Translations under genes and position numbers: made by a program | The notes under the pieces: model-generated | Told to the model about the DNA's origin: nothing | Database searches by the model: none | What the model saw: the letters and a program-made list of their open reading frames with translations, nothing else | DNA from: Bacteroidota bacterium | GTDB lineage: Bacteria; Bacteroidota; Ignavibacteria; Kapaibacteriales; UBA961 | Assembly (NCBI GenBank): GCA_020852855.1 | Contig: JADZAA010000085.1 | Span: 10,713-74,712, forward strand | Reading direction: 5' to 3' | DNA: 64,000 nucleotides | Shown: positions 54,202-58,624 of the stretch, piece by piece | Layout: each line of letters opens with the position of its first letter | Numbering within the stretch: the stretch's first letter is position 1

Positions 54202-54680
54202 AGAGCGAAAATATAGGAAATTCGCGAAATTACCTTCAAGATTTTACTGCTGTACAATAAAGGGAGTGTTCGGTTTGCTGTTCTATCGGTTCTCTATTTT
54301 TTGACGGAACGGTTGTGAAATGCAGGAATATAGAAAGTATCTTGAATTTAACGGACGGGCGCAACGAAACAGTTAAACAAAAAGAAAATTTCAGATACCA
54401 TAGAGCAATAAACCAAGCAAATATTGCCGCAAACCGAATCATAGATCGTTTCTGAACTGTAAATACATAATCCGGTATTTATTTGGGATAACAATCCGTT
54501 TTATTAACCTTTAACGGTTCTTGATTTTCTAAGGTGAGTATAGTGTAAATTTTAAGATGAAACCACAATTTAATATTAATAAAAATTATTATCTCATGCT
54601 GATTATTTATTTTCTTGTGTATATGACTGCGGATGCTACAATTCTTTTATCATATAAAGAACTCACGGTCTGTCCTTGCG

Positions 54681-54712
54681 AAAAAAAACAAAAAGGCGAG
54701 AAAAATCCCGCC
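54681..54712 (-). terminator. Weak putative terminator downstream of the MCP gene
   Basis: On the minus strand: GGCGGGA-ttttt-CTCGCC (6 bp including one G.U pair) followed by TTTTTTGTTTTTTTT. Confidence 0.3.
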
Positions 54713-54752
54713 CTTTGACGAAACAACCTATATTTTTCGAATATACGAAACG

Positions 54753-56186
54753 CTAATTCATGGATTTGGACATTTCGACCAACGATTCTATTTGGTCGTT
54801 AAGTGAATTGACGGATTCGGCTATGTTTTCCGTAACCTCCGCGCTTTCGCGGCCGGAAATCATCAATGCGCCGATTCTGTCGGAAATTTCGCTTGATGCA
54901 TAGGTTTGCTCTTCAGATGCGGCTGCTATATGCGTTGTTATACGTTCAACTTCTTGTACACTTTTAAAAATATTCGAGAACTCGCGCTCCGCACGTTCAG
55001 CCTGATACAAGCCTTTCTCTACAGCCTGTAAACTGTCGCGCGTAGCTTGAACGCTGTTTTGGGCATTTATATTGATTTGCTTGATAATTACGGCTATATC
55101 CGCTGTAGTTTGCTGTGTTTTTTCGGCTAATTTCCGCACCTCGTCCGCCACTACCGCAAATCCGCGCCCGTATTCGCCGGCACGTGCCGCCTCGATGGCA
55201 GCGTTCAAAGCGAGTAAATTTGTTTGGTCGGCTATTTCGTAAATCATTCGCGCCGATTCGGCTATTCTTTGTGACGCACTTTCAAATTCTCCTATGATTT
55301 TGGCTGTATTACGAGTCAATTCTACTATTTCTTGTATGGAAGCGCGTGTTTGCACAGCAATGGTGTTGCCGGCTCCGGCTGCACGTGCCGTATCCTGCAC
55401 CAAGTTTGCTATATTTTGTAAATTCTCGGAGTTGGATGCGCTTGTTTGATGCAACTCTTTGGTCGAATGGGTGATGCTCGTCAAATTATTCGACTGCTCC
55501 GCTACGGTGGACGACATTTCTTCTACGGCGGTTGCTATAGCTGCCGAAGAAGAAGCCACATTGCGTGAAGTATGTTCAATTTGATGAAGCAGGTTCTCTA
55601 TCGTAGTCGTAGAATTTATGATAGACTCTATTGCCTGATTTACATGAGTGCCGGCAACGCCAAATTCGCCCCGCAAACCGTTCGTAAGAGCATGGCGAAA
55701 ATATTTTTTCTTTTCCGCATAGGATACAGCCGTCTGAATCTCGCGCGACATCGCTTCTATTTGGTCTAAAATATCGTTAACCAACCAAGCGGTTTTATAG
55801 AACAAACCCGACTCCGGCGTATTAACCAAACGATTCTCGAACGACCCTTGCGAGGCTTCCGTCGCAAGTTCTTCAATCGAACGCAATATCCGTAATTCGC
55901 TTTCGGGAATATTTGATTGACGGCGTTTCCGAACGAAATTTGCCGTCGAATTGAATCTGCGTTGCGCAAGTGCGTAAAAAGCCTCGCTTTTTACGATAAA
56001 GTCCGCTGCAAACGAAACAACGAATATCGTGGCACAAAGTGCAATAAACAAGGCAGCGTCGTGCACCCAAAAGAACAAGGAGCACAGCCCGGCCAAAGCT
56101 AATAACAAAGGTATCTTGCGAAAAAATGATTTCGCAAAATCAGAGAGTATTGATGAATTCTTCATAGTTTGCTCCGTGCTGCGCAA
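54753..56186 (-). CDS. Methyl-accepting chemotaxis protein lacking a sensor domain (two N-terminal TM helices, then a cytoplasmic signalling domain)
   Basis: Highly conserved MCP signalling hairpin [38 protein letters not shown]. Methylation-helix repeats. N-terminal hydrophobic hairpin with no periplasmic domain. The start may instead be the second ATG at 56165. Confidence 0.9.
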
Positions 56187-56661
56187 GAAAGTTTAACAAA
56201 TAATCCATAGAGGCTTGTGCGCCTTGTTTTCGATTGGGGTATTGTCGCTCCACTTCAAGCATCGTAGCGTAAATTTTTTCGACTTCGCGCAATGCCGAGC
56301 GTTTTGGCATACGGCGTACTGAATAGTAGCCGACAATTTTACTATTAGTGTCGAACGACGGAGTTACATTAGCCAAAATCCAATAGAACGAACCGTCTTT
56401 GCTGGAGTTTTTGATGTATCCAAAGAACTCGTTACCGACGCTGATTACCGACCAAAGCAACTTAAAAACGCCGCCCGGCATATCGCTGTGCCGGATAATA
56501 TTATGATTTTTTCCGACCAATTCCTGCTCTGTATAGCCGGTTATTTCAATAAAAGGTTGATTCGCATATTTAATAATTCCCTTTAGGTCGGTCTTGGAAA
56601 CTAAAAAATCCTGCTCGCGTACCATTCGTTCGGATTGTGCCGACAGCGCGATTGCTTTCAT
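56140..56661 (-). CDS. Stand-alone Aer-type (FAD-binding) PAS domain protein, copy 1
   Basis: [50 protein letters not shown] closely parallels the E. coli Aer PAS core (TDLxGxITxANDAFVxxSGYxxxELxGQPHNxVRHPDMPxAAFADMW). Its 3' end overlaps the MCP start by 26-47 nt. Confidence 0.8.
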
Positions 56662-56820
56662 CAGTACAAGTTGTAAATTGAAAAATATGGCGACCTTAGG
56701 TGCCGCCATTTATGGCGCAAACTTTATAAAAATACGACGCAAAAACGACGTATAACACATAAAAGGAAAAAACCAAGATAAGTCTTTGCCATTATAGCTA
56801 CGTCTTCTATTTTTCAAGTG

Positions 56821-57342
56821 TTAAAGGGCAATTACAAATTCATCATAGCTTGCTCCGTGTTGCGCAAGAAAGTTTAACAAATAATCCATAGACGCTTGCG
56901 CACCTTGTTTTCTATTGGGGTATTGCCGCTCCACTTCAAGCATCGTAGCGTAAATTTTTTCGACTTCGCGCAATGCCGAGCGTTTTGGCATACGGCGCAC
57001 GGAATAGTAACCGATAATTTTACCGTTAGCGTCGAACGACGGCGTTATATTGGCAAAAACCCAGTAGAACGGACCGTCTTTGCTGGAGTTTTTGACATAA
57101 GCAAAAATTTCGTCGCCGCCGGCGACCACTTCCCAAAGCAACTTAAAAACGCCGCCCGGCATATCGCTGTGCCGGATAATATTATGATTTTTTCCGACCA
57201 ATTCCCGCTCCGTATAGCCGGTTATTTCAATAAAGGGTTGATTCGCATATTTAATAATTCCCTTTAAGTCGGTCTTGGATACTAAAAAATCTTGCTCGCG
57301 TACCATTCGCTCGGATTGCGCCGACAGCGCGATTGATTTCAT
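56821..57342 (-). CDS. Stand-alone Aer-type (FAD-binding) PAS domain protein, copy 2 (tandem paralog)
   Basis: Same length (173 aa) as copy 1. Roughly 90% identical to it at protein and nucleotide level, by manual comparison of the two listed ORFs. The listed ORF start at 57624 is trimmed to the ATG at 57342. Confidence 0.8.
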   Translation of the reverse strand: MKSIALSAQSERMVREQDFLVSKTDLKGIIKYANQPFIEITGYTERELVGKNHNIIRHSDMPGGVFKLLWEVVAGGDEIFAYVKNSSKDGPFYWVFANITPSFDANGKIIGYYSVRRMPKRSALREVEKIYATMLEVERQYPNRKQGAQASMDYLLNFLAQHGASYDEFVIAL

Positions 57343-57676
57343 CTTTAAAATGTTGAGATTTGTAAGAAATAGGACGAGCTTAAAGCCGCCCTTATTTGCG
57401 GAGAATCTGCAAAAATACAACAAAAAACGAGGTGTAACACGCTGTTTTACTCTTGCATAATGCGTTTTATGCAGGGAATGGAGGTCTTTGTAGTTCAATG
57501 CCGAGGGCGGGAAATATCGAGAGTGCAAAAATAATCGTAACGCCGTAAGTGTATCGCGTATTATGCAAGGGTTGCACCAAAAAGAGCAGATAAAATACAG
57601 CAGTGCAACAGGCACTTCATACAAGCAACGGAAGGATTTGATTTTTATGTTTTATCACGCATGGAACGATGTGTTT

Positions 57677-58624
57677 CTACCGTTTCATTTTCCATTTTAC
57701 AGTCTGCCCATGACGAGGCGTTTTTACTTGCGAGGCAACGGGAATGTTTCCTACGATAGAAAGTGTTTCTCTCTTTTTTCTCGAAAAAGACGGATTCTTC
57801 AAAAATAAAGTCAATAAAGCGGCTAAAAGAATAAAAAACATGGATACTTCGAGCCAATATTGCAAAGGATGTATCCATATTTCCTCAAATGTTCCCCAGC
57901 GGCCAAGCACTTCTATAAAATTCCAGAAAATAATAACTGTGGGTATGGCGTATCGAACTGCATAATCGAAAGTTTGGATTTTCACCAGGTGCGCGATCAG
58001 ATAAAGCGACCAAATCAATGAACCCCAAGCAACAATATGCGTAGCCGGATGATTGTCGCCTGCAATGTTATTGTCGTACACGACCAGCAACAAGATATAG
58101 AAAAACCAAATAATTACAATCGTTTCGCTAAACGAGGCCAAGGAAACAGGTTTCTTGAATCCGGTTTGATCCAATATATCTTTTCTCAGCCCGAATGCTT
58201 TTTGCAACCAAATAAAAAGCGAGCAATTAGTTCGGGTAAATAAATAGATGAGAGTTATCGTAGCCAGTAATCCTATTGACGATAACATAACTAAATATTC
58301 GGGCTTTGTGGCTATTTCTCCGTGCTCCATAAGCGGCGCCACATTATATCTTTCGGCCGCCCAAACAAATGAAAATTCAATCCAGCCTGTCCAAACCAAT
58401 ATACCGCCAAGCAAGCCCATAATGGTGGCAAATGTAGGCTGTTCGTTCTTTTTCACTCCCCAAATAAGTAAAGCTACGCCTGCAACTCCCATCAAGGCCG
58501 CACCTATAAGCTTATATTCTACCAGCAGTTTTTCGTTCAATACCATTATGGCATGGCCTATCGGCATGAGCAAAAGTACTAATAGAAAAGAGAAAAAGCC
58601 GTTCTTTAACCCGTTTATATTCAT
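57677..58624 (-). CDS. Polytopic membrane protein, function unknown
   Basis: About 8 predicted TM helices. No motif I recognise. Codon usage is consistent with its neighbours. Confidence 0.45.
   Translation of the reverse strand: MNINGLKNGFFSFLLVLLLMPIGHAIMVLNEKLLVEYKLIGAALMGVAGVALLIWGVKKNEQPTFATIMGLLGGILVWTGWIEFSFVWAAERYNVAPLMEHGEIATKPEYLVMLSSIGLLATITLIYLFTRTNCSLFIWLQKAFGLRKDILDQTGFKKPVSLASFSETIVIIWFFYILLLVVYDNNIAGDNHPATHIVAWGSLIWSLYLIAHLVKIQTFDYAVRYAIPTVIIFWNFIEVLGRWGTFEEIWIHPLQYWLEVSMFFILLAALLTLFLKNPSFSRKKRETLSIVGNIPVASQVKTPRHGQTVKWKMKR

Follow-up and report, generated by a model that had tools for sequence, protein, structure and literature searches.

A probable CetB-CetB'-CetA type bipartite energy-taxis receptor of an uncultured Ignavibacteria species, with an apparently recent tandem duplication of its PAS gene

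The energy-taxis receptor of Campylobacter jejuni distributes the domains of the aerotaxis receptor Aer over two proteins, CetA and CetB, and has been described as a 'bipartite energy taxis system' (PMC2628428). This system has been described in several studies (Hendrixson 2001; Elliott and DiRita 2008, PMC2628428; Reuter and van Vliet 2013, PMC3558505). The gene immediately before cetA encodes a second PAS protein, CetC, which shares 64% identity with CetB and can restore a cetB mutant; loss of both genes causes severe impairment, and loss of cetC alone has no phenotype (PMC3558505). By 2009, according to PMC2886117, 55 CetA/CetB-type pairs had been reported from diverse bacteria. Magnetospirillum gryphiswaldense encodes four CetBA pairs with overlapping cetB-cetA genes (Herz et al. 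2025, PMC12442639), and for its CetBA2 pair the binding of flavin adenine dinucleotide (FAD), CetB-CetA interaction, CetA-dependent polar localization of CetB and an aerotaxis phenotype have all been demonstrated (PMC12442639). Bipartite receptors count as an established class in a 2026 review (PMC13401364). Here we describe a locus in a 64,000-nucleotide stretch of contig JADZAA010000085.1 (assembly GCA_020852855.1), hereafter called the window, in which two genes for small PAS proteins, PAS2 and PAS1, precede the gene of a methyl-accepting chemotaxis protein (MCP). It is very probable, in our judgement, that these genes encode, in an uncultured Ignavibacteria species, a bipartite receptor for energy taxis (redox/aerotaxis) of the CetB-CetB'-CetA type. 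As bipartite Aer-like receptors and the presence of two PAS paralogs per transducer are already documented, the locus adds little in kind, and its FAD binding, PAS-MCP docking, taxis output and isoform difference are predicted here from homology.

Open reading frame (ORF) analysis places three consecutive genes on the minus strand of the window, in the order PAS2, PAS1 and MCP (Table 1). The initial annotation had recognized two PAS ORFs of 173 aa, each with its own stop codon, and its coordinates for both hold; its estimate of roughly 90% identity between the two proteins comes down to 87% on measurement (151/173 positions, gap-free). The overlap between PAS1 and the MCP gene, given there as 26-47 nt, indeed amounts to 26 nt when counted from ATG 56165 and to 47 nt from the alternative start TTG 56186; conservation among relatives points to ATG 56165 as the MCP start. 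PAS2 and PAS1 are separated by a spacer of 159 nt. Public gene callers disagree on where the PAS genes begin, with PAS1 called at 189 aa and PAS2 at 267 or 161 aa (annotations of loci L086-L091; window starts 56661/56709 and 57342/57624), while the family alignment supports the 173-aa start for both genes. An exact-sequence look-up of the 173-aa PAS1 found no match because the public callers use the 189-aa start. No additional PAS or MCP genes occur elsewhere in the 64-kb window.

The case for a flavin sensor rests on the domain content, fold and pocket residues of the PAS proteins. Both match the Pfam families PAS_3, PAS and PAS_9 and PAS families alone (PAS_3 E 8.9e-14 in PAS2), bearing out the expected PAS_3 assignment. 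Among solved structures, the best sequence match to PAS1 is the PAS domain of Escherichia coli Aer (8DIK, E 5e-27), followed by full-length Aer, MmoS and NifL. All of these are FAD-binding redox PAS domains. The AlphaFold2 model of PAS1 (pLDDT 93.4) superimposes on 8DIK with a template-modelling (TM) score of 0.95, a root-mean-square deviation of 0.9 Å and 38% identity in Foldseek, with NifL and MmoS as the next closest structures, and it consists of a PAS core followed by a conserved three-helix C-terminal extension of ~55 residues (aa 121-172). Residue numbering coincides with that of Aer up to residue ~100. In the Aer crystal structure, FAD is contacted by H53 (stacking), R57 (phosphate), W70 (adenine), N85 (N3/O4) and R115 (near N5) (PMC9668731), and R57, H58 and D60 have been defined genetically as FAD residues (PMC2628428). 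PAS1 and PAS2 both carry H53, R57, H58, D60, W70, N85 and R116, the last corresponding to Aer R115, and the Aer-type pocket residues are invariant or nearly so across a 22-member family alignment. The alignment thus finds the FAD-contacting residues kept in both copies, as the initial annotation presupposed. For M. gryphiswaldense CetB2, the predicted FAD-binding residues, some of them supported by mutation, are H54, N55, R58, F67, W71, N86, V100 and R117 (PMC12442639), and they match one-for-one H53, N54, R57, F66, W70, N85, V99 (I99 in PAS2) and R116 of the window proteins. The residues G28, V65 and V99, which permit the Aer PAS domain to fold and bind FAD without HAMP, are native in CetB (PMC2628428); all three are native in PAS1, and PAS2 has I99. 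Together, these sequence comparisons suggest that PAS1 and PAS2 are Aer-type FAD sensors.

The putative transducer has the layout described for CetA. Its sole Pfam match is MCPsignal (aa 298-431), and no sensor domain is detected by Pfam. The N-terminus carries a hydrophobic stretch of ~41 residues, I18-V58, broken by H35-D36 and bordered by R16/K17 and K59, for which AlphaFold2 gives helices at 6-33 and 37-59; the global confidence of this model is low (predicted TM score 0.35), and it was used for secondary structure alone. This agrees with the description of the CetA helical hairpin as a hydrophobic region of 36-38 aa with a mid-point His and basic residues on its flanks (PMC2628428). The initial annotation had seen in this protein an MCP without a sensor, beginning directly with the hairpin; that part stands, and what it lacked is a divergent HAMP domain, missed by Pfam, which very likely follows. 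Pfam HAMP matches in eight partner MCPs (E 2e-10 to 9e-4) align to aa 83-138 of the window MCP in a 36-sequence alignment, and AlphaFold2 places in this region a helix at 88-105, a 15-residue connector and a helix at 121-151. By homology to the partner HAMPs, together with this modelled helix-connector-helix, the window MCP would have a HAMP domain of its own. Residues G107, R112, N130, D134, Q135 and E142 are invariant in the family, and W127 and E137 nearly so. They form a signature, G107..R112...W127..N130D..D134Q.E137A...E142, continued by R157, G163 and G166, that is conserved from Ignavibacteria to Proteobacteria and presumably corresponds to the surface of 'conserved HAMP residues' proposed to contact the PAS protein (PMC2628428). 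The signalling domain is built of symmetric arms of 142+142 aa about an EAARAGE tip, ~40 heptads in all, with methylation-type motifs TAVEEMSST (aa 212) and ASEEQTYAS (aa 416). A protein identical to the MCP (P0121), labelled 'Ignavibacteria bacterium', occurs on at least 23 public contigs. A word-indexed protein search with the first 220 aa of the MCP found no match despite this identical full-length entry, which reflects the insensitivity of the tool and is not evidence.

A different domain was observed in other CetA-like proteins. Many proteobacterial and acidobacterial partner MCPs (L007, L012, L016, L022, L032, L079) carry a C-terminal chemoreceptor zinc-binding (CZB) domain (PF13682, E 1e-11 to 1e-14) at aa ~370-440, after a shortened signalling domain, so that in them a bipartite FAD-PAS input would be joined with a CZB module. 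The window MCP has no CZB domain.

The separation of sensor and transducer is a property of the whole family. A search of 5.8 billion proteins (E <= 1e-5) returned 3193 PAS homologs, and those among the matches listed are almost all stand-alone proteins of 172-176 aa. No named Campylobacter or Magnetospirillum entry is found among the best 120 matches listed, and the link to CetA/CetB rests on architecture, residue positions and gene overlap as the papers describe them. A genome scan with one genome per species yielded 80 loci, from Beta- and Gammaproteobacteria, Holophagaceae/Geothrix, Bacteroidota, Ignavibacteria/Melioribacteraceae, one Chlorobiota metagenome-assembled genome (MAG) and one actinomycete. 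An MCP ORF comes next to the PAS gene on the same strand, immediately downstream, in 77 of the 80, which represent Pseudomonadota, Acidobacteriota, Bacteroidota, Ignavibacteria/Chlorobiota and Actinomycetota; the other three are truncated contigs or have a larger gap. Conservation of the split in related genomes, which the initial annotation had named as a check, is thereby borne out. An in-frame MCP ATG lies at the identical 26-nt overlap in 66 of these 77 homologous loci, and the junction has the consensus PAS ...(K)G.SYEEF..L-stop over MCP MKN.S.... A Shine-Dalgarno (SD)-like AAGGG/GGAG motif is embedded in the PAS K-G codons, 8-12 nt 5' of the ATG, in 66/73 loci; its counterpart in the window is a GGAG 8 nt upstream of the MCP ATG, within the H-G-A codons of PAS1. 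The cetB-cetA junction is thus a deeply conserved dual-coded overlap of 26 nt with an embedded SD-like motif, which speaks for an obligatory co-expression of the two proteins.

This conservation bears directly on whether the split is genuine. A superficial PAS, hairpin and MCP likeness to Aer and the unusual 26-nt overlap could suggest a single-polypeptide Aer that was frameshifted or mis-sequenced, or a pseudogene. The domains at the junction are in the wrong order for such an origin, and a simple frameshift of Aer would not give a 173-aa protein with the family C-terminus, at which both PAS genes end. More than 3000 stand-alone homologs of ~172 aa are known, and the window junction is identical across >10 independent assemblies. 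Because the same stop and the same ATG at 26-nt overlap recur in 66/77 loci across phyla, a frameshifted or decayed Aer gene can be regarded as excluded, and the probability that we leave to it is vanishingly small. The natural split originally proposed is upheld, and its distribution suggests that it is ancient.

Adjacency alone might mislead in another way, if the PAS proteins sensed flavin or another ligand on behalf of some other partner, for instance a kinase or a transcription factor. Promiscuity is possible for stand-alone PAS proteins, an orphan CetB5 is encoded beside a CheY in M. gryphiswaldense (PMC12442639), and PMC2886117 speculates that bipartite sensors could serve several transducers. 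The near-universal adjacency, the conserved dual-coded overlap across phyla and the HAMP-region signature conserved in the partner MCPs speak for a sensor-transducer pair instead, as do the experimental CetB-CetA interaction and dependence in two species (PMC2628428, PMC12442639). We regard another partner as very unlikely. The in-trans PAS-to-MCP arrangement predicted by the initial annotation is in all likelihood right by analogy and belongs to an already established family, CetA/CetB (PMC2628428).

One locus in the scan shows a different route to two sensors near one transducer. In the actinomycete Austwickia sp. (L063, 3806-4507 and 7599-8258), a CetB-like gene overlaps a short MCP gene by 4 nt, and a second CetB-like gene lies ~3 kb downstream.

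The two PAS genes of the window are the product of a tandem duplication, as first proposed. The DNA repeat (56156-56758 against 56837-57440) is 87% identical with a period of 681 bp, takes in ~100 nt of the 5' leader and extends to the stop codon. Both copies are intact, with a whole-gene ratio of non-synonymous to synonymous divergence (dN/dS) of 0.18. The end of PAS2 keeps a relic of the overlapping ATG (TATGATG), which opens a frame of just four codons. A single PAS gene is found in the sister lineage (P0003/P0122, L096), where the PAS protein is 83% and the MCP 84% identical to those of the window in a partly syntenic setting, as well as in the next lineage out (P0004/P0123, L084). The proportion of synonymous differences between PAS1 and PAS2 is 0.16, 0.45 and 0.23 along three successive segments, while each copy differs from the sister-species gene by 0.58-0.87; since the former value is the smaller one throughout, the split from the sister is older than the duplication or than its last homogenization. 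The duplication therefore appears recent and lineage-restricted. The only other tandem PAS-PAS-MCP locus among the 80 belongs to the Chlorobiota MAG (JBDHXA010000059, L001/L003), the nearest species-representative genome (70%). Its MCP is 60% identical to that of the window and likewise lacks a second HAMP, but its PAS copies share 68% identity, with divergence spread evenly (69/65/70% by segment), unlike the mosaic of the window; this indicates a duplication that is older or independent, without recent homogenization. A duplication shared with this MAG was considered and set aside, as orthology of PAS1 with its P0005 is weakly supported (72% vs 58-63%).

Public assemblies of the same species differ in copy number. 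The two-copy structure is present at 99.9-100% identity in three independent assemblies (GCA_054685085.1, GCA_963170025.1 and GCA_013328955.1), so it is not an artefact of the window. Two assemblies have a single PAS gene, GCA_026932225.1 (L088, 3005-3526) and GCA_013328915.1 (L090/L083, 1403-1924); these share 99.3-99.4% identity with the window and 99.9% with each other. In both, the single gene is an exact chimera that joins the leader and 5' end of copy 2 to the body of copy 1, and the switch points differ (nt 33-51 and nt 137-211). Short contigs from different samples (L092-L095) end within the 3' part of PAS1 (window ~56209-56316), breaks that are typical of a repeat-induced assembly break and lend indirect support to two copies there. 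Taken at face value, the single-copy assemblies and the broken contigs could mean that the true genome has one PAS gene and that the tandem duplication was created in assembly. The reproduction of two copies in three assemblies speaks against it, a central block diverged by 28% cannot be an assembler's invention, and one-copy chimeras with two different junctions are what collapse of, or unequal crossing-over within, a true repeat produces. An assembly origin of the duplication is accordingly highly improbable, and the chimeras reflect a true tandem repeat that either collapsed in short-read assembly or underwent recurrent unequal crossing-over. For annotators and users of MAGs, the locus is a caution: short-read assemblies collapse or recombine it, and gene callers place the starts of both PAS genes wrongly.

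Divergence between the two copies is distributed as a mosaic. PAS1 and PAS2 are 97% identical over aa 1-70 (dN 0.012, dS 0.18), 65% over aa 71-113 (dN 0.188, dS 0.68) and 92% over aa 114-173 (dN 0.008 and dS 0.28 over 114-165). Differences thus concentrate after the NHNIIRH motif, where the initial annotation had placed them ([14 protein letters not shown] versus LWEVVAGGDEIFAY). Non-synonymous differences are in strong excess in the centre (17/102 sites in 43 codons, against 3/287 in the 122 codons of the flanks; Fisher p = 3e-8), and the excess of synonymous differences there is marginal (Fisher p = 0.02). Uniform drift cannot account for this pattern, because conservation across the family is lowest in the C-terminal segment (34-51% between phyla), which is nevertheless near-identical between PAS1 and PAS2. 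The mosaic fits two histories: gene conversion homogenized the flanks while the centre was kept distinct, or the centre changed at an accelerated rate. Positive selection was considered for the central block and is not demonstrated, its dN/dS of 0.28 being below 1. The central block of PAS2 is closest to that of the sister protein P0003 (81%), to which PAS1 is 70% identical. In the PAS1 AlphaFold2 model, the block takes in the last part of the F-alpha helix, the F-G loop and the G, H and I strands. With strand faces inferred by alternation anchored on N85, V99 and R116, the differences at 79, 81, 83, 95, 99 and 110 would face the flavin pocket and are conservative, and the non-conservative ones (S71E, V75G, N77D, S91P, T105A and S107G) lie in loops.

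What the second copy does can be read in three ways. Near-identical flanks around a divergent aa 71-113 make it most likely that PAS1 and PAS2 are two sensor isoforms, competing for one transducer as CetB and CetC do in C. jejuni. Alternatively, PAS2 could be a redundant recent duplicate without an isoform role, transient through unequal recombination, next to what works as an ordinary CetBA pair. The single-PAS sister lineages (P0003/P0122 and P0004/P0123), the two same-species assemblies with one chimeric copy and different junctions, the near-identity of the flanks, the many conservative strand differences and the lack of a phenotype in the C. jejuni cetC single mutant (PMC3558505) would all suit redundancy, whereas both genes are intact and evolve under purifying selection, the presence of two copies holds over three assemblies and uniform neutral drift does not predict 17 versus 3 non-synonymous differences (p = 3e-8). 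Redundancy is a possible explanation that we hold to be unlikely. More specifically, and in our opinion rather improbably, the copies could be functionally distinct inputs, with selection keeping the centre, which contains the flavin-pocket lining and signalling sheet, different while gene conversion homogenizes the rest. If this were true, the isoforms would have different FAD midpoint potentials or a different signalling bias, and redox taxis would have two thresholds (band-pass); PAS1 would be stoichiometrically coupled to the MCP, PAS2 would be separately expressed, and strain-level gain and loss by unequal crossing-over would tune the response. Whatever the outcome, this young mosaic pair is a natural experiment on which part of CetB diverges first and may guide chimera and redox-tuning work.

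The receptor might operate as follows. An FAD-PAS protein would sense the redox state of electron transport and dock in trans on the membrane-proximal HAMP region, probably with one PAS per subunit of the MCP dimer, while the transducer, devoid of its own sensor, would be anchored by the two-helix hairpin. The HAMP would pass the signal to the methylatable signalling domain of ~40 heptads, which would control CheA and allow methylation-based adaptation. PAS1 would be co-translated with the MCP via the family-wide 26-nt overlap, and PAS2 would derive from the recent lineage-restricted 681-bp tandem duplication with its ~100 nt of 5' leader. Several observations weigh against the reading of the locus as a two-isoform CetBA-type receptor. 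Pfam detects no HAMP in the window MCP, even with the N-terminus scanned at E <= 10. A second canonical HAMP of ~50 aa, present in P0124-P0129, the nearest Ignavibacteria CetA-like relatives, at a position between window MCP aa ~185 and 186 (around 55608-55613), is missing from the clade that the window forms with P0122, P0123 and the Chlorobiota MAG, and the CetA-type HAMP consequently joins the signalling domain almost directly there. No che or flagellar genes adjoin the locus, and the motility of the organism is an assumption. The pocket-side differences between the PAS copies are mostly conservative (I/V, V/I, G/A, F/I) and could be functionally neutral, and the second copy may be dispensable, given the one chimeric copy in two same-species assemblies. 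Finally, the gene order is cetC-cetA-cetB in C. jejuni and PAS-PAS-MCP with a 26-nt overlap in the window.

Features of the locus and its surroundings are collected in Table 1.

Table 1. Positions of genes, protein-coding segments and putative regulatory structures at the receptor locus, in window coordinates.
Feature	Positions	Strand	Details
315-aa multi-pass membrane protein	57677-58624	-	directly upstream of PAS2, same strand; no Pfam match
Duplicated 5' leader of PAS2	57343..57440	-	weaker counterpart hairpin 57392-57371
PAS2, distal cetB-like gene	56821..57342	-	ATG 57342, stop 56821; 173 aa; own stop codon
PAS2 divergent central block	57004..57132	-	aa 71-113
PAS2-PAS1 spacer	56662..56820	-	hairpin and T-rich block common to the region upstream of PAS2
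PAS1, proximal cetB-like gene	56140..56661	-	ATG 56661, stop 56140; 173 aa; own stop codon; 3' end overlaps MCP start
PAS1 divergent central block	56323..56451	-	aa 71-113
Dual-coded overlap	56140..56165	-	26 nt; PAS1 C-terminus ...YEEFINTL-stop and MCP N-terminus MKNSSIL... in different frames
MCP, cetA-like transducer gene	54753..56165	-	ATG 56165, stop 54753; 470 aa
Membrane hairpin coding region	55992..56114	-	MCP aa 18-58, turn H35-D36; Kyte-Doolittle scan, AlphaFold2
Putative divergent CetA-family HAMP	55746..55904	-	MCP aa ~88-140: amphipathic sequence (AS) 1 88-105, connector 106-120, AS2 from 121
Intrinsic-terminator-like hairpin	54691..54716	-	11 pairs then T-run; 37 nt downstream of MCP stop

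Each PAS start is preceded, at a distance of 26-29 nt, by a terminator-like hairpin with a U-rich tail, which was duplicated along with the gene. In the spacer this hairpin (56709-56687) has an 8-bp stem that runs into AUUUUUC, and 26 nt separate it from the PAS1 ATG; the spacer folds with a minimum free energy of -32.5 kcal/mol (z -3.0). These leader hairpins could be attenuators, terminators or leader structures; a scan of 54400-58000 against Rfam found no RNA family in the leaders. As the spacer with its terminator-like hairpin parts PAS2 from PAS1, PAS2 is perhaps expressed semi-independently. The hairpin downstream of the MCP gene probably marks the end of the transcription unit. A sigma-70 promoter scan gave seven sites against 6.9 expected from shuffled sequences, which is no better than chance. 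The G+C content of the locus region (44.6%) matches that of the window (45.8%). The neighbouring genes are unrelated to chemotaxis and encode a methyltransferase, YfiO-like, short-chain dehydrogenase, LOG-family and transglutaminase-like proteins and the 315-aa membrane protein. Neither the sister species nor the Chlorobiota MAG has the latter at this position, and for this reason it is probably not a member of the receptor module.

Among known receptors, E. coli Aer shares with the window the PAS fold (8DIK), the FAD contacts and a hairpin without periplasmic domain (PMC9668731). Aer is one polypeptide in the order PAS-F1-TM-HAMP-signalling and the window encodes separate proteins; where Aer has an F1 linker, the window PAS has the three-helix extension instead, and the HAMP of Aer is of a different type. 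According to PMC13232288, Aer lacks adaptive methylation, whereas the window MCP has two canonical methylation-type motifs. The lateral PAS-to-HAMP signalling of Aer may nevertheless serve, by analogy, as the mechanistic model for the window proteins. Assignment to the single-polypeptide Aer class itself was rejected, the ORFs being separate with their own stops and the split being kept in 66-77 of 80 loci. An Aer2-type receptor (heme-PAS, poly-HAMP, soluble) was likewise discarded: the NCBIfam model transduc_aer2_vibrio scores 130 bits against a cut-off of 1200, over the signalling region only, and the window PAS is unfused and, by its closest solved structures, of the FAD type.

The domains are also divided in CetA, CetB and CetC of C. 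jejuni. There as in the window, a PAS-only protein accompanies a transducer of hairpin, HAMP and signalling domain, G28/V65/V99-type residues are native, and the hairpin is a hydrophobic stretch of ~36-40 aa with a mid-point His. CetB and CetC flank one transducer and are both able to signal through it, and the window also has two PAS paralogs; CetB and CetC are 64% identical and uniformly diverged, in contrast to the 87% identical, mosaic copies of the window. At the position of Aer D60, C. jejuni CetB has Glu and the window PAS proteins have Asp.

The window also resembles CetBA1-4 of M. gryphiswaldense, in particular CetB2/CetA2, where the PAS gene likewise comes first, the genes overlap and the predicted FAD residues are equivalent. 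This bacterium, too, combines a sensorless transducer with a small cytoplasmic PAS protein and has multiple CetB paralogs per genome. Its FAD binding, protein interaction and phenotype are experimental and those of the window are predicted. M. gryphiswaldense has one CetA per CetB at separate loci, with paralogs ~55% identical, whereas the window has two CetB proteins of 87% identity encoded in tandem before one CetA. The phyla also differ, Alphaproteobacteria in one case and Ignavibacteria in the other, and the window would thereby extend CetBA-type receptors to Ignavibacteria/Chlorobiota-group bacteria of engineered anaerobic or low-oxygen systems.

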